A DNA stretch of 64,000 nucleotides from an uncultured Gammaproteobacteria bacterium (GTDB lineage Bacteria > Pseudomonadota > Gammaproteobacteria > JAADHQ01). Location of the stretch: the NCBI GenBank assembly GCA_947258655.1, contig CAMYJD010000012.1, positions 13,323 to 77,322 of the forward strand. Direction: 5' to 3'. The notes beneath the pieces were generated by a model. The model did not search any database. It was given only the letters and a program-made list of their open reading frames with translations, and was not told where the DNA came from. Every line of letters starts with the position of its first letter. Position 1 is the stretch's first letter. The position numbers and the translations under genes were made by a program. Positions 6,328 to 27,940 of this stretch are shown here, piece by piece.

Positions 6328-8208
6328 TTATGCTGAGCGTCGCTGTTTCTTCAAATGTACAAGTAGCAACGATACCGCTGCCGGCGTCATACCCGGGATG
6401 CGGCTGGCCTGACCAATGGTCAGTGGCCGGGTCTTGTTTAATTTTTCAGTGACTTCGAAAGACAGCCCCCTGACAGTACTGTAATCCAGCGTCGCGGGAA
6501 TCCTGGTCTCTTCATGTTTGCGGTGTCTGGCGATCTCTTCCTGCTGACGATTGATATAACCGGAATACTTGATCTGGATCTCTACCTGTTCGGCAACCTT
6601 CGGGTCGGTCACCGCAGTACCTGCGCCTGGCAGGGTCATCAGTTTCTGATAGCTGACCTCGGGGCGACTGAGCAATTCGTCCAGCCTCGCCGCGCGTGTC
6701 AGGGCCTGCCCCAATACCTCGCAAACAATATCAGCAGGGACCTTTTCCGGGGCAATACTGGTACTGCGCAGGCGCTTTTTCTCGGACTCGACGGCTTGCT
6801 GTTTTTGTTCAAAGGCATCCCAGCGATGATCATCCACAAGACCGAGCTCACGACCTGTCGGTGTCAGGCGCAGATCGGCATTGTCTTCTCGCAGTAACAA
6901 ACGATACTCGGCCCGGCTCGTGAACATGCGGTAGGGTTCTGCGGTACCACGCGTAATCAGGTCATCGATCAGTACACCGATATAGGCCTGGTCGCGGCGC
7001 GGACACCAGGGTTCCTGTTCACGGGTATACTGGCAGGCATTGATACCGGCCACGAGACCCTGGGCCGCCGCCTCTTCATAGCCTGTCGTACCGTTGATCT
7101 GACCGGCAAAGAACAGGCCATCGATGAATTTCGTCTCTAGCGACGGCTTCAGGTCGCGCGGATCGAAAAAATCATATTCAATCGCATAACCCGGGCGGGT
7201 GATGTGCGCATTCTCGAATCCCTTCATCGAACGCACCAGTTCATACTGGACATCGAACGGCAGACTGGTGGAAATTCCGTTCGGATAGACCTCGTGGGTC
7301 TGCAGGCCTTCGGGCTCGACGAAGATCTGGTGCGATTGCTTGTCGGCGAAACGCACGACCTTGTCCTCGATAGAAGGGCAATAGCGCGGGCCGACACCAT
7401 CGATGACACCGGTATACATCGGCGAGCGGTCCATACCGGAACGAATGATATCGTGCGTCTGTTCATTGGTATGGGTGATGTAACAGGGAATCTGTTCGGG
7501 GTGTTCATCGGCATGCCCCATATACGAGAACACCGGCACCGGCATATCGCCCGGCTGTTCTTCCAGCACGCTGTAATCGATACTGCGCCCATCGATGCGT
7601 GGCGGTGTGCCGGTCTTCAGGCGATCGACACGGAAAGGCAGCTCACGCAGGCGCTGTGACAGCGCATTGGCTGGCGGGTCACCGGCACGTCCACCCTGAT
7701 AATGGGACAGGCCGATATGAATCAGGCCACCGAGAAATGTACCCACCGTCAACACAACCGAGCGCGCTGAAAAACGCAGGCCCATCTGTGTCACAACACC
7801 GACAACCCGGTCCTGATCGACAATCAGGTCGTCAACGGCCTGCTGGAACAGACTCAGGTTCGGCTGGTTTTCCAGCGTCTCCCTGACCGCCTGTTTATAT
7901 AACACCCGGTCTGCCTGTGCGCGCGTCGCTCGTACGGCCGGCCCCTTACGGGCATTCAATGTACGGAACTGGATGCCGCCGAGATCGGCGGCATGGGCCA
8001 TGACACCGCCCAGCGCATCCACTTCCTTGACCAGGTGACCCTTGCCTATGCCGCCAATGGCTGGATTACAGCTCATTTGGCCCAGCGTTTCGATATTATG
8101 GGTCAGCAGCAGCGTCCTGGCACCCATTCGTGCAGACGCAAGCGCCGCCTCGGTACCGGCATGACCACCACCAATCACAATGACATCGAAATCTTGCTGA
8201 TATTTCAT
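6328..8208 (-). CDS. mnmG: tRNA uridine-5-carboxymethylaminomethyl modification enzyme MnmG/GidA
   Basis: 626 aa; FAD motif [15 protein letters not shown]; full-length GidA architecture. Confidence 0.95.
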
Positions 8209-8606
8209 ATAGTTAACTATCGAGACTCAAAATGTAACTCATCCGCAGTTCGTCTGGATTCTGCAAATAATAGGTTATATCTATCAATTTTATGTTAATG
8301 ATAGAAAAGTCTGAATAAAACCAGGCGTCTGCCAGGCTTGGATACGCAAAATTGAACACTTTTTAACCAGCGCGTATTCTATGCCTTTTTGTCTTGCATG
8401 GCCAACATCACGGCAATGGTCTGAGACGCACGTAATGATGGCCAAACAGTGGTGCAATACCCCATCATTAAGGATTGTTTCTGTGTAAACAAATGCAATC
8501 ATTTACTCAATATAAAAACAATCATTTGTATAAATTCAGACGCGATCTGGCAGATTGATAGACCAGTTTCAATATTATTTGACGGTCAAGATGCCGAAAA
8601 ACCAAC

Positions 8607-8663
8607 AAAGCGGACATTCACAACTAAGAGACTGTATGGCCGGGGCCGACCCTAAACGGCCTG
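8607..8663. repeat. 57-nt intergenic repeat element, copy A (perfect 16-mer AAAGCGGACATTCACA then GGCCGG..CGACCC core)
   Basis: about 72% identical to copy B at 38328-38384, sharing a perfect 16-mer. Confidence 0.5.
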
Positions 8664-8907
8664 TCGTGGAGTGTGAAGAAAACGAACGTTTACTGTACAC
8701 GCGAAGTCCGACTGTGAACAACCAAGTTAATTTCTTCCTGTTGATACTGTAATGGCATTAAGTAAAACATTCTACACGGCTGGAACTGAACCTAAGCTGC
8801 CTGGATAGTCATACCCACAGTAAGTGCTTATCTCACTGTTTTTACTAGTATATCTACCTATCATGAGGAAAATTAGGTAAAAATCCAAAAAATATTCCTT
8901 CATTTAC

Positions 8908-8938
8908 TTGACCTGGAGTTGACTCTAGGTTGTAGGCT
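8908..8938 (+). promoter_or_regulatory. MerR-type promoter: -35 TTGACC, 19-bp spacer with dyad ACCTGGAG-N4-CTCTAGGT, -10 TAGGCT
   Basis: seen directly about 80 bp upstream of the merP-like start; a 19-bp spacer with a centred dyad is the MerR-family operator layout. Confidence 0.45.
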
Positions 8939-9015
8939 TTCTACTGCCTTAATATTAAAACTGCCCGGCTAGCCACCGATTGACTGGCTGATGAACTTAC
9001 TATGAGGAAAAAGCA

Positions 9016-9312
9016 ATGAAACGAATATTGATATTGACAGGTTTATTCCTATTGCCTTTATCACCATTTGCGGCCGATAAACAGGTTGTGGAAATTGATA
9101 TCGAAGGTATGAGTTGTAAATTCTGTGCACTTAGTGTGAAAAGGAATCTGTCCACATTACCCGGTGTAGACAAGGCGGCAGTCAGTTTTAAGGACAGGAA
9201 GGCTCATATCAAGATGGCTCCGGGTAAAAAGGCTGATGTAGCTCAGATTAACAAAAAAGTTAATGAAGCTGGTTTTAAGCCTGTGAACGTAACCGTCAGC
9301 AAGGATGATTAA
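9016..9312 (+). CDS. periplasmic heavy-metal-associated (HMA) protein, MerP-like
   Basis: 98 aa, signal peptide, GMSCKFC metal-binding motif. Confidence 0.8.
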   Translation: MKRILILTGLFLLPLSPFAADKQVVEIDIEGMSCKFCALSVKRNLSTLPGVDKAAVSFKDRKAHIKMAPGKKADVAQINKKVNEAGFKPVNVTVSKDD

Positions 9313-9336
9313 ATTCTATTTTTCTGGAGACGAGTC

Positions 9337-9621
9337 ATGAGTATCAAGATAGAAATATTTTCCTCACCTGGTTGTGGTAAGTGTGGTCATGCCAAAGAAG
9401 TTTTACGCAAACTGGCTGATGAATTAGGTGGTGATAATATCCAGTGGCGTGAAGTGAATATTCTCGATGAAATGGACCATGCCGTTGATCTGGGCGTGCT
9501 ATCTACACCATCCATTGTTGTAGATGGCAAACTAGTTTTCGCAAGCCTACCTTCAGTTAAAAACCTTCGTACCGAACTGGAACGCATGCTGGATATGAGT
9601 GATCAGGATTCAAAAACATGA
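9337..9621 (+). CDS. small thioredoxin/glutaredoxin-fold protein (CGKC active site)
   Basis: 94 aa, SPGCGKCGHAK motif; translationally coupled (ATGA overlap) to the downstream membrane protein. Confidence 0.65.
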   Translation: MSIKIEIFSSPGCGKCGHAKEVLRKLADELGGDNIQWREVNILDEMDHAVDLGVLSTPSIVVDGKLVFASLPSVKNLRTELERMLDMSDQDSKT

Positions 9622-10925
9622 TAACTTTATTACTCCTTACCGCAACACTATTGGGCCTACTGGCCTTTTTTGAACCGTGTACCATTGCGACTCACACCCT
9701 GTTTTCAGTGCGAGCACATCAATCAGAAGACAATAAAACATGTTGTCAAAGTTTGCTGTCTGTCTGGTTGGGTCGAACTGCTTTATTAGTGGGGCTGTTT
9801 ACTATAGCCGTGTTTTTTACAGAGGCTCCACAGTGGGGGCCTTACACACCCAGTATTATTCTGTCTGCTATGGCTGTACTTTACCTGGTATCACGCTTTA
9901 TCTATATCCCGGTGCCGCATCTTGAGTTTTTCAAATTATTGCCAAATGGGAGGAACTTACCTCATGGCATACAACTAGGCTTGACCTTACCCGCCTGTAC
10001 CTTACCTTTGGTTATCGTGACTGTTGGTATGGCGATTACTGTGGATTCAATAAGTATTGCCGCCATAGCTGGATTTCTTTTTGCAACACTGTTTACACTA
10101 CCTATGGTTATTGCAACATATAAAGGTGTTCATGAATATGCGAGACAACTATTGAATCGTGCAGCTGTAGGCAGTCCATATCTAACGGCCGTCCTGCTAT
10201 TCAGCACAGCACTTTACCTGTTAATTCCTGCTTTAGATATCAGCTCGGAAATGCTTAAGGAAACCTTTCAGACAGCGAGCTGGGCCGGAATCGGAATAGC
10301 ATTTTTGGCAGGCTTTGTTTTTAGCTTTAATCCAGTGTCCTTTGCTTCTATTCCCGTCATGCTGGCTTATGTTACCAAAGCACATGAGGAGCGAAGGGCT
10401 TTGTTAATGGGCGGCGCCTTTGTACTTGGGATGGTTTTTACTCATGTTGTACTGGGTGTGGCTGCCGCACTTGGAGGTGAATGGGTACAAGGTGTTATGG
10501 GGAGGCAATGGGGCATACTCCTCGGGCCTATACTGATCATCATGGGGCTGATGTGGTCAGGTGCAGTAAATATCCGCTTGCCGTGGTTTGGGGTCAAAGG
10601 CCGAAAAGTAACGGGTATTTGGGGTGCCTTTTTATTGGGAATTCCATTTTCTGTTGCTGTATGTCCCTTCTGCACACCAGCTTTACTGGTTACATTAACG
10701 GCCAGTGCAGCGATTGGTTCAGTCAGTTTTGGTTTTGCCCTATTATTTGCGTTTGCGTTAGGTCGTAGCATACCTATCATATTGGGTGCCTGGAGTATGG
10801 GTTGGTTAGAGTCATTGCAGATACTCTCCCGATATCAAAAATGGTTTGAAGTAACCGCAGGGATTGTGCTTGTTATCGCCGGCTTGTATTTACTGAATGA
10901 GTATTTCTTTTTTATTGAATATTGA
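9618..10925 (+). CDS. CcdA/DsbD-family thiol-disulfide transporter-like polytopic membrane protein
   Basis: 435 aa, at least 10 TM helices; C-terminal half resembles the DsbD transmembrane domain (CPFCTP motif) but has NPVSF where the first Cys motif is expected. Confidence 0.55.
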   Translation: MITLLLLTATLLGLLAFFEPCTIATHTLFSVRAHQSEDNKTCCQSLLSVWLGRTALLVGLFTIAVFFTEAPQWGPYTPSIILSAMAVLYLVSRFIYIPVPHLEFFKLLPNGRNLPHGIQLGLTLPACTLPLVIVTVGMAITVDSISIAAIAGFLFATLFTLPMVIATYKGVHEYARQLLNRAAVGSPYLTAVLLFSTALYLLIPALDISSEMLKETFQTASWAGIGIAFLAGFVFSFNPVSFASIPVMLAYVTKAHEERRALLMGGAFVLGMVFTHVVLGVAAALGGEWVQGVMGRQWGILLGPILIIMGLMWSGAVNIRLPWFGVKGRKVTGIWGAFLLGIPFSVAVCPFCTPALLVTLTASAAIGSVSFGFALLFAFALGRSIPIILGAWSMGWLESLQILSRYQKWFEVTAGIVLVIAGLYLLNEYFFFIEY

Positions 10926-10945
10926 TAAATGATCAAACTGGAATC

Positions 10946-11347
10946 ATGTATAAAATTGGCGAAGTAACAGAGCGCACGGGCCTATCGGCCGACACATTAC
11001 GATATTACGAAAAAATTGGGTTACTACCGAATATATCGCGTAACACATCAGGTGTGCGCTTGTATAGCGAGAAGGATCTTTCAAGGCTAAATTTCATCAA
11101 GCGAGCACAACGCATGAATTTTACGCTTGATGAAATCAAGCAGTTACTAATGATGCGTGAAGACCCACAGCATGCAAAAGACACTGTGCGCCAGTTAACA
11201 GCTAAAAAGCTTGAGGATATCGAAAACCACCTTACAGACCTATCAACTCTCAGGAATGAACTAACACTACTACTTAATTTATGCCGTGCAAGCGAAGAGG
11301 GCTGCCCCATTATTGAAGATCTGGATACCGACAAACAAAAGAAATAA
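10946..11347 (+). CDS. MerR-family metal-responsive transcriptional regulator (CueR/ZntR-like)
   Basis: MYKIGEVTERTGLSADTLRYYEKIGLL HTH; C-terminal C-x6-C (LCRASEEGCP) metal site. Confidence 0.85.
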   Translation: MYKIGEVTERTGLSADTLRYYEKIGLLPNISRNTSGVRLYSEKDLSRLNFIKRAQRMNFTLDEIKQLLMMREDPQHAKDTVRQLTAKKLEDIENHLTDLSTLRNELTLLLNLCRASEEGCPIIEDLDTDKQKK

Positions 11348-11552
11348 ATGTTATCTATTAGTTTAGACAGATAGCATTATTTGAAGATTAGGAAATGAAA
11401 TACTTACGACTGATATTATTACTTTTCTTTGTTATAGAGAGCGCATTTTTCTCGATAGTATACGCTGTAAATAAATTCCCACCTTTTGTAATGCAACTCA
11501 CAATAAGTGCAGAAAATTATGGACATAGAAAAGCCTTAATACAAATAAATAA

Positions 11553-11822
11553 GGTTTTAATGATATTGGAGAAAAGAAACTCAAGATTGCTATAGTCGCT
11601 AATGAAGACGGGATACATGCCCTATTGGAAGAGAATAAAGAAACCTCTCAACTCTTAACTAAATTAGCAAATCGAGGGGTTAAATTTAAAGCATGCCGTA
11701 TTAGTATGCGTGCCTGGAAATTAAAAGATAATCAGTTCCCGCTGGAAGTAGAATTTGTACCGGTTGGCGCACCTGAAGGTATAAAGTTACAAATGCAAGG
11801 TTATAAATATTGGCGACCATAA
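11553..11822 (+). pseudogene. possible DsrE/TusD-like small protein lacking a canonical start codon
   Basis: Open frame ..DIGEKKLKIAIVANEDGIHALL..GVKFKACRISMRAW.. looks like a YchN/DsrE-fold N-terminus. The frame has no ATG; an ATT sits where an ATG would be expected; low-GC surroundings. Confidence 0.2.
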
Positions 11823-12139
11823 TATTTGTCTGTAACCTCGAACACTAGTCTACCTTGAATGCCCGATTTTGTGATACTAAATATTAGTATGCATAAGAAA
11901 CGTACGTTAATTGTACGTTCACAATATTCGTCAATTAAATCAGTTTGTAGTCTTTCAGTGTAAAGAAACTGATGTACAGCGAAAGTATGGGAAACTTTAC
12001 CCAGCAATACTGTAATCAGATGACTGCTTTTGACCGTTCTCTGTAGTTGATTAATGGAATGTCGAACGGCTATTGATTCACCTGACCAGGCAGTCTTCAG
12101 AAGCAAGACATACAGGCGCCGGTAGCAGCCGCCCCGGGA

Positions 12140-12622
12140 TTATTCCTTGACCGGGTGCTTGGCCAGTTTACGCTGCAAGGTTCGTCGATGCATGCCAAGG
12201 CGACGCGCGGTTTGCGAGATATTGCCCTGGCACTCGTTCAACACTTTATGGATATGCTCCCATTCCAGGCGCGCAACGCTGAGTGGTTTGGCTCGTAACG
12301 GTACACTGACGTCGCCTTCATCCTTATGAAAGGCATTGATAATTTCATCGGCATCGGCGGGTTTAGTCAAGTAATGCCTTGCGCCCAGTTTTATGGCCTC
12401 AACGGCCGTGGCCACCGAGGCATAACCGGTCAGGACAACGACACGGGTATTTTCATCCAGCGCCATCAATGCCTTGACCAGCTCGAGTCCGGAATCTCTC
12501 GGCATGCGCAGATCGACAACGGCATACTCCGGTGACTCCTGCCTGGCCGCGGCAATACCTTCATTGACATTATGTGCTATGCGCACATGATAGCCGCGCT
12601 GCTGCATGGCATCGGACAGCAC
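12140..12622 (-). CDS. RegA/ActR/PrrA-like response regulator (receiver + Fis-type HTH), N-terminally truncated
   Basis: C-terminus SQTARRLGMHRRTLQRKLAK matches the RegA HTH. The ORF begins at a GTG within the receiver domain; the acidic pocket (LLxVDDD) is absent and an in-frame stop lies 14 codons upstream. Confidence 0.5.
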   Translation of the reverse strand: MLSDAMQQRGYHVRIAHNVNEGIAAARQESPEYAVVDLRMPRDSGLELVKALMALDENTRVVVLTGYASVATAVEAIKLGARHYLTKPADADEIINAFHKDEGDVSVPLRAKPLSVARLEWEHIHKVLNECQGNISQTARRLGMHRRTLQRKLAKHPVKE

Positions 12623-26297: not shown

Positions 26298-26321
26298 TTA
26301 TCCACTCTGCATTGTGGATAA
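26298..26321. promoter_or_regulatory. pair of DnaA boxes in rpmH-dnaA spacer (TTATCCACT, TGTGGATAA)
   Basis: read directly from sequence; dnaA autoregulatory region and possible origin. Confidence 0.6.
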
Positions 26322-26393
26322 CTTTGAAAAATAGAGTTAGAATCCGAGGATAACGAAGTTATTAACAACCTCTCCAACAAGAAGGGAGCCCTC

Positions 26394-27719
26394 TTGTCCA
26401 GTCTTTGGAATCAGTGTCTTCAATACCTTGAAGATGAATTACCGCAGAACCAGTTTAATACCTGGATCAGGCCGCTGCACGCGATCCAGAATGGCGAATC
26501 GCTGCAACTGCTGGCTCCAAACCAGTTTGTACTAGACCAGGTTAAGGATAATTTTCTCGACTCTATTCAGCAATCCCTGCAAAACCTGAGCAGCAACCAA
26601 CCCCCGAGCCTGAAATTGCAGGTGGGCAGCGTCAATCAGGCTGCTCAACCGACCGCTGTACAGACGGATAACGACACGGGCAAGCAGGCGATTTCACACA
26701 AGAGCAATATTAACCCAGATTTCACGTTTGCATCCTTTGTTGAGGGCAAGTCCAACCAATTGGCGCGGGCGGCCTCGGTACAGGTCGCCGAGAATCCGGG
26801 TAAGGCCTATAACCCGTTGTTTATCTATGGCGGCGTCGGTCTTGGTAAGACCCATTTGATGCACGCCGTCGGCAACATGATGATGGCCAAGAATCCGCAG
26901 GCGCGGGTTGTATATCTACATTCAGAGCGTTTTGTTGCCGATATGGTCAAGGCCTTGCAACATAACTCGATCAATGAATTCAAACGCTATTACCGCTCCG
27001 TCGATGCGTTGCTGATCGATGATATCCAGTTCTTTGCTAAAAAAGAGCGCTCCCAGGAAGAGTTTTTTCATACCTTTAACTCATTACTGGAAGGCCATCA
27101 GCAGGTTATCCTGACCTGTGACCGTTACCCGAAGGAGGTCAATGGCCTCGAAGAACGACTGAAATCTCGCTTCGGCTGGGGTTTGACGGTATCGGTGGAA
27201 CCACCGGAACTGGAAACACGCGTGGCCATCCTGCTGGGCAAGGCCAAACAATTGCATGCGGATTTACCCGATGAGGTCGCATTTTTCATTGCCAAACGCC
27301 TGCGCTCCAACATCCGTGAACTCGAAGGTGCATTAAAGCGCGTTATAGCTAATGCCCATTTTACCAACCAGTCGATTACGCTCGATTTCGCCAAAGAGGC
27401 ACTGAGGGACCTGCTGTCGCTGCAGGATCGCCTGGTCAGTATTGAAAACATTCAGAAAACCGTTGCTGAGTATTACAAAATACGCGTGCATGATTTATTA
27501 TCGTCCCGGCGCACGCGTTCTATAACGCGACCGCGGCAAATCGCGATGAGCCTGGCAAAGGAATTGACCAGCCATAGTCTGCCCGAAATCGGCGATGCCT
27601 TTGGCGGGCGCGATCATACGACCGTGTTGCATGCCTGTCGCAAGGTCAAGGAGCTACGCGAAACAGAAATCAGGATCAGGGAAGATTATTTAAGCCTGTT
27701 AAGAATATTGAGCACATAA
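26394..27719 (+). CDS. dnaA: chromosomal replication initiator DnaA
   Basis: 441 aa, TTG start with GAAGGGAG RBS; Walker [11 protein letters not shown]. Confidence 0.95.
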
Positions 27720-27940
27720 TGTGGATAACTTGTTTATATAAATTAGAATTAAAGATATTCAATTGTTATCCACAGTTTAGTAACAAATAGTAAAGCGGTT
27801 TTACATTCGTTATACATAATTAAAACCGATATAAGATATTGTTTTATATGATAAAAATAGTTTTATTAACAAAAGGCGTGTTTGTTAATAATTACAATAA
27901 CAAAGATATATTTATTTATATTAATAAATAGGGAAATCGG
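27720..27940. promoter_or_regulatory. AT-rich dnaA-dnaN spacer with inverted DnaA boxes (TGTGGATAA near 27719, TTATCCACA near 27765) - candidate oriC/DUE
   Basis: boxes seen in sequence; about 220 bp of very low GC between them and dnaN. Confidence 0.5.

Follow-up and report, generated by a model that had tools for sequence, protein, structure and literature searches.

When a cytoplasmic thioredoxin and a CcdA-like membrane protein are encoded behind the promoter of a metal sensor, the question arises what is passed across the inner membrane once the sensor responds, electrons or the metal ion itself. This question is raised by a cassette at positions 8908 to 11347 of a 64-kb stretch of DNA, referred to here as the window, which comprises 64,000 nucleotides from an uncultured gammaproteobacterium (assembly GCA_947258655.1, contig CAMYJD010000012.1, positions 13,323 to 77,322 of the forward strand). 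Behind a MerR-type promoter it encodes a periplasmic heavy-metal-associated (HMA) protein, a small thioredoxin-fold protein, a membrane protein with two CcdA-fold domains in tandem and a MerR-family regulator. More than 100 related sequences, all from bacteria that oxidise sulfur, contain the same cassette. Judged from sequence comparison and structure prediction, it may be a soft-metal-induced device which exports reducing power in order to keep periplasmic thiols reduced, a reading to which a probability of roughly 45% is assigned.

The promoter (8908 to 8938, plus strand) consists of a -35 hexamer TTGACC (8908–8913) and a -10 hexamer TAGGCT (8933–8938) which are separated by a spacer of 19 nucleotides (8914–8932). 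A dyad ACCTGGAGT-tg-ACTCTAGGT is found at positions 8911 to 8930, with the arms ACCTGGAGT (8911–8919) and ACTCTAGGT (8922–8930) forming a 9+9 inverted repeat in which eight of nine positions are complementary. It overlaps the -35 hexamer and is centred about 2.5 bp upstream of the middle of the spacer. An over-long spacer of 19 to 20 bp containing a dyad is the mark of MerR-family promoters, and it is present here as an earlier note on this DNA had described. A generic promoter scan returned no MerR-type promoter, which reflects the limit of a scan that considers spacers of 16 to 18 nucleotides only and is not counter-evidence. For comparison 60 genome loci and 80 metagenome loci encoding relatives of the membrane protein were sampled. 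Among the 108 distinct loci with at least 500 bp of upstream sequence, 98 carry the operator TTGACCTGGAGTnnACTCCAGGT, followed after a 19-nucleotide spacer by a TAnnnT hexamer, and the operator consensus of the family is ACCTGGAGT-nn-ACTCCAGGT. Because the same operator, spacer and hexamer precede the cassette in nearly all of these loci, the promoter is not a chance match. The 27-nucleotide operator consensus matches the window at a single place, with one mismatch, and matched none of 100 shuffled sequences.

The distance from the operator to the membrane protein gene falls into classes. It is about 330 to 370 bp where the thioredoxin gene comes first, about 700 bp where an HMA gene precedes it as in the window, about 1080 bp in a further class, and 2 to 3.3 kb in long operons with extra genes. 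In 90 of 106 loci the operator is accompanied by a regulator of the window type. No such operator was found in six loci which have another type of regulator (L065, L067, L069 and L150–L152). In its dyad core, CTGGAGT-nn-ACTCCAG, and in the way the dyad overlaps the -35 hexamer the operator appears similar to that of Escherichia coli zntA. A search of positions 8000 to 12300 against Rfam matched no RNA family.

The regulator gene (10946 to 11347, plus strand) most likely starts at the ATG at 10946, the form found in the public protein collection, which yields a protein of 133 amino acids; a TTG at 10922 would give 141. The product contains the winged-helix DNA-binding domain and the coiled-coil dimerisation helix of the MerR family, with Pfam matches to MerR_1 (69.2 bits), MerR-DNA-bind (64 bits) and MerR (55.5 bits) that are all above the cut-offs. 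It aligns over its full length with the solved structures of MerR (4UA1), CueR and CadR, and its putative metal loop C121-x6-C128-PII (LCRASEEGCPII) falls on the metal loops of these proteins. The two cysteines are invariant in 47 of 47 aligned sequences, and the loop has the form C-x6-C in 104 of 105. The gene follows the operon in the same direction rather than being divergent from it, as the earlier note had pointed out, and a regulator of this type is found downstream of the membrane protein gene in 91 of 107 loci, immediately adjacent in 74 of them. In sensors of divalent metals a third cysteine ligand would be expected where the dimerisation helix begins. This residue is absent: the alignments with CadR and CueR place a poorly conserved lysine at the position of CadR C77 and CueR S77, and apart from C121 and C128 no column has a cysteine in 20% or more of the 47 sequences.

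None of the NCBIfam equivalog cut-offs is reached by the regulator. The best match is ZntR (PRK09514; 114.6 bits, cut-off 143), followed by CueR (107.4, cut-off 147.4), MerR (105.1, cut-off 150.85) and CadR-PbrR (90.1, cut-off 151.45). The likeness to ZntR and its zntA promoter is therefore limited by a score below the cut-off, by the missing cysteine at the CadR C77 position and by the C-x6-C loop, which is without the additional cysteine and histidine ligands that are presumably present in ZntR. The regulator falls into a MerR subfamily which has no name of its own and whose operator is clean and conserved. A site made up of two thiolates, as is understood from CueR, suits monovalent soft ions or linearly coordinated Hg(II), and the sensed metal may be of this kind. 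Within the regulator coding sequence an 18-nucleotide inverted repeat with 89% complementarity and a loop of 20 nucleotides was observed (11086 to 11141).

The first gene of the operon (9016 to 9312, plus strand) encodes the HMA protein of 98 amino acids, which has a predicted signal peptide ending in MKRILILTGLFLLPLSPFA/AD and the metal-binding motif GMSC34KFC37. Both cysteines are invariant in 14 of 14 orthologues. Pfam recognises the HMA domain with 47.6 bits; the protein remains below the equivalog cut-offs for MerP (46.4 vs 92.55) and CopZ, and among solved structures the HMA domains of CopA are matched better (55 bits) than MerP (34 bits). The second gene (9337 to 9621, plus strand) encodes a thioredoxin-fold protein of 94 amino acids with a C13-G-K-C16 motif, the two cysteines of which are conserved in all 57 sequences compared. 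It has no signal peptide, its N-terminus begins straight with a beta-strand, and it is assigned to the cytoplasm. It matches Pfam Thioredoxin_3 (45.2 bits) and, below the cut-off, a model of the MJ0307 family (54.8 bits). Its nearest solved relatives are the archaeal redox thioredoxins MJ0307 (1FO5) and 1NHO. The stop codon of this gene overlaps the start codon of the membrane protein gene by four nucleotides (ATGA), so that the two are probably translationally coupled, and the thioredoxin gene lies directly upstream of the membrane protein gene in 109 of 110 loci. The cytoplasmic thioredoxin on which CcdA and DsbD draw as electron donor would thus have its counterpart in the adjacent gene. 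The metal chaperone, the CGKC protein and the membrane protein of 435 amino acids were all found where the earlier note had placed them.

The membrane protein itself (9618 to 10925, plus strand) consists of two six-helix domains of the CcdA fold in tandem. The N-terminal domain (residues 1–212, 9618 to 10253) carries an EPC21 motif in the first transmembrane helix (TM1), a PAC127 motif in the fourth (TM4) and a vicinal pair C42-C43, and the C-terminal domain (residues 213–435, 10254 to 10925) carries NPV in its TM1 and C349-P-F-C352 in its TM4. The description of the whole protein as CcdA/DsbD-like in the earlier note holds directly for the C-terminal half. The Pfam families DsbD_TM (55.7 bits) and DsbD_2 (36.8 bits) cover residues 224 to 430 only, so that the six-helix DsbD_TM core is present there, and the profile of the C-terminal half matches the solved electron transporter CcdA (5VKV) with an E value of 3.8e-20. 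For the N-terminal half the assignment comes through profile-profile comparison only. No Pfam or NCBIfam model matches or exists for it and a PDB sequence search with its profile gave no match even at an E value of 10, whereas hhalign aligned it with the family of the C-terminal half and its CcdA-like relatives (97.1% probability, E 5e-11, 191 columns), in such a way that EPC21 falls on the TM1 site and PAC127 on the TM4 site.

It is the N-terminal half which keeps the canonical cysteine pair of CcdA in TM1 and TM4, each cysteine beside a proline and both invariant. Further invariant residues of this half include P20, R53, R93, P98, P125 and P130, and H101 is nearly invariant. The vicinal pair is less conserved, with C42 in 44 and C43 in 40 of 56 sequences. 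In close relatives of the C-terminal half the TM1 cysteine is missing (F-N/S-P-V/S) and a C-P-x-C motif surrounds the canonical TM4 cysteine position; none of the 56 sequences compared deviates at C349 or C352. An AlphaFold model (pLDDT 82, pTM 0.58) shows 12 transmembrane helices and no soluble domains, with helix breaks at residues 18–19, 122–125, 237–240 and 348–351, so that C21, C127, C349 and C352 are situated at discontinuities in the middle of the membrane. CcdA (5VKV) was the best and the only meaningful match of a Foldseek search in the PDB. The loops on one face of the membrane contain 14 lysines and arginines and those on the other face two, from which an outside location of the N-terminus and a cytoplasmic location of C42 and C43 are predicted.

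Four invariant cysteines located at helix breaks of two homologous six-helix domains might also be thought to hold a metal or an iron-sulfur centre which serves as electron-transfer cofactor or as sensor. The two domains are predicted to lie parallel and modules with the C-terminal half alone exist, and such a centre is therefore regarded as very improbable.

A HMMER scan of 1.84 billion cluster representatives revealed few full-length relatives of the membrane protein and many stand-alone proteins which match either residues 1 to 205 or residues 210 to 433. The stand-alone N-terminal proteins have about 204 amino acids, and a profile search found at least 372 clusters of the N-terminal half at E values up to 1e-5. 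No paper was found which describes the fused protein, the family of its N-terminal half or the regulator-operator pair, and as far as the literature found extends, all three appear to be undescribed.

With these parts a chain of cysteine pairs could be drawn across the inner membrane, from the CGKC motif of the thioredoxin via C21/C127 and C349/C352 of the membrane protein to the CxxC motif of the HMA protein. In the reading as a reductant exporter the regulator would bind the conserved dyad in the promoter with the 19-bp spacer and would activate transcription once its two-cysteine loop holds a thiophilic metal. The dedicated thioredoxin would then reduce the cysteines of the membrane protein, as thioredoxin does for CcdA and DsbD, and the membrane protein would hand the electrons outward to the periplasm. 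Periplasmic metal-binding thiols, and envelope thiols which had been oxidised or cross-linked by the metal, might thereby be kept reduced, since the CxxC motif of the HMA protein and other thiols would need reduction for metal binding or repair after metal-catalysed oxidation. The anatomy, the conservation, the homologies, the topology and the pairing of regulator with operator come from the sequence analysis itself; induction by metal, the identity of the metal, the direction of flow and the passing of electrons rather than metal ions are all conditional parts of this scheme.

Precedents for reductive pathways of the DsbD family which are induced by copper are the Scs proteins of Salmonella (PMC10907172) and dsbDEG of Pseudomonas aeruginosa (bioRxiv 10.1101/2020.08.17.255257). 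Like these systems and the ScsABCD proteins of Proteus and Caulobacter the cassette has a membrane protein of the DsbD superfamily and would be induced by metal stress to act on envelope thiols. It differs in several respects. In ScsB and DsbD eight helices are combined with periplasmic alpha and gamma domains, and housekeeping TrxA is used, whereas the protein of the cassette has 12 helices without soluble domains and reaches only 31.4 against a cut-off of 330 with the DsbD subfamily model. Scs and dsbDEG are regulated by CpxRA or another two-component system and not by a MerR-type activator, and a periplasmic Dsb-like partner as in these systems is missing from the cassette in the window. 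In the Scs system redox activity and Cu(I) transfer are not cleanly separable, since Cu(I) is also bound by ScsB and ScsC and handed on to CueP (PMC10907172). In metal-resistance regions of Mesorhizobium ccdA-like and thioredoxin-like genes are induced by zinc and cadmium: a ccdA-like gene downstream of cadA responds to zinc and/or cadmium, as does a separate pair annotated as cytochrome c biogenesis protein and thioredoxin-related protein, and according to the authors the role of these homologues "remains to be addressed" (PMC3668242).

With CcdA and DsbD, represented by the solved CcdA of Thermus thermophilus (5VKV), the cassette shares the six-helix fold, the cysteines at the breaks of TM1 and TM4, which are kept in the N-terminal half, and a cytoplasmic thioredoxin as the obvious partner. 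In contrast to CcdA and DsbD it has two such domains in one chain of 12 helices, or in two adjacent genes, with the CPxC motif gained in a C-terminal half that has lost the canonical cysteines, and it comes with a thioredoxin of its own under the control of a metal sensor. Public annotation names homologues of the membrane protein "cytochrome c biogenesis protein CcdA". A housekeeping CcdA for cytochrome c maturation, accompanied by its thioredoxin and only by coincidence preceded by a MerR-like promoter, is nevertheless hardly credible and was rejected. Operator and regulator are kept with the cassette in about 90% of loci, the cassette resides in an island of low GC content and has metal-resistance genes as neighbours, the recurrent neighbours of the related loci include no gene for cytochrome c maturation, and the canonical cysteines are absent from the C-terminal half, where they are replaced by an altered pattern.

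Several observations speak against the export of reductant as the function of the cassette. No periplasmic thioredoxin-fold acceptor, such as CcmG/ResA, DsbC/DsbG or the alpha and gamma domains of DsbD, is encoded in the cassette of the window. Only 29 of 108 loci have a close orthologue of the HMA protein immediately in front of the thioredoxin gene, and no HMA gene was called in the split-module loci L064 to L069, and for these reasons the HMA protein is not a universal substrate of the system. Nor are HMA proteins known to serve CcdA or DsbD as substrates. Both canonical cysteine positions of CcdA are lost in the C-terminal half in favour of CPxC, and it is just this half which is the only part recognised by Pfam and the only one present in every variant of the module. 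Its best NCBIfam match is the ArsG efflux permease family, although with 74.6 against a cut-off of 200. Relatives of the C-terminal half exist which are fused to an N-terminal HMA domain without a signal peptide, and the longer operons contain an outer-membrane barrel and a weakly MerT-like protein, which gives them a more transport-like appearance. From the claim of the earlier note that the cassette is a metal-sensing periplasmic thiol-reduction system, the architecture, the homology of the thioredoxin and the cysteine pair of the N-terminal half stand up well, and the lost cysteines of the C-terminal half and the lack of an acceptor in the window do not fit.

A serious rival, though less probable than electron transfer, is that the chain carries a metal ion or a metalloid and that the double CcdA protein is a thiol-lined permease. 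The thioredoxin-fold protein would then be a cytoplasmic CxxC metallochaperone and the HMA protein a periplasmic donor or acceptor, joined by the outer-membrane barrel in the longer operons, and the route could lead outward for detoxification or inward towards MerA or cytoplasmic thiols. A role in metal or metalloid translocation is kept in play because of the match to ArsG, and it would be consistent with the invariant CPxC motif within a transmembrane helix throughout the family of the C-terminal half, with the HMA fusions and with the predicted position of C42 and C43 on the cytoplasmic face. The thioredoxin also matches the MTH895/ArsE family (39.2, cut-off 62). Both this score and the one for ArsG are far below the cut-offs, the nearest solved relatives of the thioredoxin are redox thioredoxins and not metallochaperones, and the N-terminal half has exactly the arrangement of two cysteines found in the electron transporter. 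In actinomycetes CcdA-region proteins are listed as "mercury transporter" beside TrxA-region proteins (PMC12195606, table 4), but these labels are annotations and not assays, and a literature search for MerT/CcdA in Streptomyces found no papers. If transport were the function, the cassette might represent a new class of soft-metal transporters derived from the fold of an electron transporter, in which the four cysteines relay an ion such as Cu(I), Ag(I) or Hg(II) between a cytoplasmic metallochaperone of the thioredoxin fold and a periplasmic HMA chaperone and in which the family of the N-terminal half is an obligate partner subunit; this version is rated about as probable as the transport reading in general.

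ArsE and ArsG, the subject of a 2019 paper by Chen, Zhang and Rosen to which PMC9144182 refers, reportedly combine a thioredoxin-like protein of the MTH895 type with a CcdA-like "aromatic arsenical efflux permease". The cassette shares with ArsE/ArsG a Thioredoxin_3-type protein and a membrane protein of the CcdA superfamily under the control of a metal or metalloid sensor. It differs in that the sensor is of the MerR and not of the ArsR type, in the additional N-terminal domain and HMA protein and in the genomic context, as no ars genes flank the cassette in the window.

A further question is whether the cassette belongs to mercury resistance. It shares with mer operons a MerR-type activator, a promoter with a 19-bp spacer, an HMA protein with signal peptide and a cysteine-lined inner-membrane protein. 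It departs from mer operons in that the window has no gene for MerA, the membrane protein is no relative of MerT, MerC or MerF, and the regulator comes last, is co-directional and has two instead of three conserved metal-ligand cysteines. No merA, merT or merC gene and no CDF or RND gene was found in the 64-kb window, with merA searched by tblastn using MerA from related loci. The statement of the earlier note that this is not a mercury operon is borne out for the window; it needs to be qualified for the relatives, as merA, merT or merC occurs within 5 to 6 kb of the fused cassette in 23 of 105 loci, often adjoining it on the opposite strand. Since mer genes lie near these loci and a weakly MerT-like gene is part of the same-strand run upstream of the membrane protein gene in 31 of 84 loci, the link to mercury and other soft metals is closer than had been assumed.

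An accessory module for mercury uptake or handling, analogous to MerP and MerT and working together with a merA gene elsewhere in the genome, would account for this linkage, for plasmid versions which lie beside merRTPA or MerT/MerP genes and for the MerP-like architecture of the HMA protein, in which a signal peptide is followed by an HMA domain. Such a role is nonetheless improbable. Apart from the absence of merA, merT and merC from the window, the HMA protein and the regulator are below the MerP and MerR equivalog cut-offs, and the third cysteine used by MerR for Hg(II) is missing according to the CadR and CueR alignments. The adjacent mer operons have their own MerR, MerT and MerP, and other relatives adjoin cusCBAF, bufferin-like, CDF/RND or P-type ATPase genes. 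CDF or RND efflux genes lie within 5 to 6 kb of the fused cassette in 33 of 105 loci.

The composition of the cassette varies from locus to locus. The long operons add a Phenol_MetA_deg-type outer-membrane barrel, up to three HMA genes and the weakly MerT-like protein of 133 amino acids. In Sulfuriferula and related Betaproteobacteria a split form is found, in which the regulator gene is followed by the thioredoxin gene and by separate genes for the N-terminal half (204 amino acids) and the C-terminal half (231 amino acids), sometimes with a DsrE-like gene at the end. Split modules lie directly after the bufferin-like genes BufA1, MbnB_TglH_ChrH and HvfC_N in L067 and L068 (2257–4191) and directly after cusBA and cusF in L065 (1–4171), and in Betaproteobacteria this placement ties the module to the handling of copper or silver. 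In L064 the split genes occur together with the regulator and the operator of the window type.

A still simpler form consists of a regulator, a thioredoxin and the C-terminal half without any N-terminal half, and is found on plasmids of cultured bacteria. On pOC167 of Afipia carboxidovorans it stands between genes for an HMA protein, a P-type ATPase and an MFS protein on its upstream side and a MerT-family gene with merP on its downstream side. Its neighbour in Cupriavidus metallidurans Ni-2 is merRTPA, and plasmids of Paraburkholderia fungorum also have it. Overall, the split versions and those with the C-terminal half alone often adjoin mer, cus, czc or P-type ATPase genes. If the module were a transporter it would be redundant beside the MerT-family gene and merP of pOC167, though mer operons often have several transporters. 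These simple modules resemble the cassette in a homologous thioredoxin, in a C-terminal half with 52 to 58% identity and the same NPV and CPFC or CPIC motifs, and in their metal-resistance neighbourhoods. They differ in the missing N-terminal domain and in the regulator, which is encoded in first place and belongs to another type; no operator of the window type was found in them. This second type of MerR regulator, in which the dimerisation helix begins with an ACC motif and the loop has the form C-x8-C, is shared by the plasmid modules and by the split loci except L064. The same effector module is therefore under the control of two or more classes of MerR-type sensors, and for this reason a generic maintenance of thiols fits better than a metal-specific role.

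Candidates for the acceptor that reductant export would call for are found outside the window. An exported Thioredoxin_2 protein similar to DsbC and DsbG, with a CPSC or CPAC motif, recurs in six related loci and is a candidate periplasmic acceptor; in L064 (3988–4587) and L128 (3998–4579) its gene lies on the opposite strand just upstream of the module.

Other genes accompany the module in some loci. A metallo-beta-lactamase-fold protein with a signal peptide (an open reading frame (ORF) of 309 amino acids) is encoded after the membrane protein gene in L002/L003, L005, L007, L010, L027 and others, and in several of these its gene stands between those for the membrane protein and the regulator. 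The family is present in 18 sampled loci, and its best NCBIfam match, below the cut-offs, is the SoxH-related "quinoprotein relay system zinc metallohydrolase". The contig L153 (Logan SRR26798413, 245–5970) is a high-GC, actinobacterial-like locus with several CcdA-like proteins. It encodes in order a MerR-family protein, a membrane protein with CPGC, an exported protein, two DsbD_TM proteins, the second of which is fused to an HMA domain and has CPSC, an HMA protein with a single transmembrane helix and an enzyme resembling thioredoxin reductase with CPTC. A search of plasmids with an HMA-fused relative gave no match.

The cassette occurs for the most part in uncultured Gamma- and Betaproteobacteria which oxidise sulfur and come from vents and marine sediments, and at least a homologue of the N-terminal half is present in Sulfurirhabdus autotrophica. 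In the window the cassette is contained in a block of low GC content (8209 to 12100; 0.35–0.46) between mnmG/gidA (0.56–0.60) and a response-regulator gene (about 0.54), and about 700 bp of apparently non-coding DNA (8209 to 8907) precede the promoter within this block. By its composition the block looks like an acquired island. Acquisition and spread by horizontal transfer are suggested by the low GC content together with an identity of 65 to 81% across metagenome-assembled genomes of Gamma- and Betaproteobacteria and with three copies in one such genome.

Downstream of the regulator a gene for a DsrE/DsrF-like exported protein (11395 to 11822, plus strand) is split by a frameshift of one nucleotide, with the Pfam DsrE match on the second ORF. 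One A is apparently missing near 11556–11560, where ...INKVLNDIGEKKLKIAIV... would be expected, and the gene could be a pseudogene or the frameshift a sequencing error. Intact orthologues exist in eight related loci, for instance directly after the regulator in L031 (7723–8163), and also follow the split modules of L067 to L069, so that this is probably an accessory gene of the cassette. No DnaA box was found near the cassette or gidA. Elsewhere in the window, at 26313 to 27774, three perfect DnaA boxes (TTATCCACA) flank a dnaA-like ORF of 441 amino acids (26394–27719), which is followed by ORFs of 366, 364 and 804 amino acids; the resemblance of this group to dnaA-dnaN-recF-gyrB is by gene order and size only.

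The cassette is well defined and widespread in metal-rich sulfur habitats. As far as its sequence tells, it resembles a MerR-controlled resistance operon which has been built from parts of the CcdA superfamily, and by the membership tests applied it stands outside the mer operons, the named sensor equivalogs, ArsE/ArsG and DsbD/ScsB; none of its four proteins reaches an NCBIfam equivalog cut-off. If it exports reductant, bacteria of metal-rich vents and sediments would possess a self-contained system for the supply of reducing power on demand under the control of a cytoplasmic metal sensor. This would extend the idea drawn from Scs and DsbD that metal stress is thiol stress, with a different class of regulator, a dedicated thioredoxin and a new two-domain architecture of the membrane protein. 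If it transports metal instead, the fold of an electron transporter would have been recruited as a thiol-lined metal permease. In either case the N-terminal half constitutes a sizeable family for which no Pfam or NCBIfam model exists, and experiments should be feasible, as bacteria in culture such as Afipia carboxidovorans OM5, Cupriavidus metallidurans Ni-2 and Paraburkholderia fungorum have related modules.

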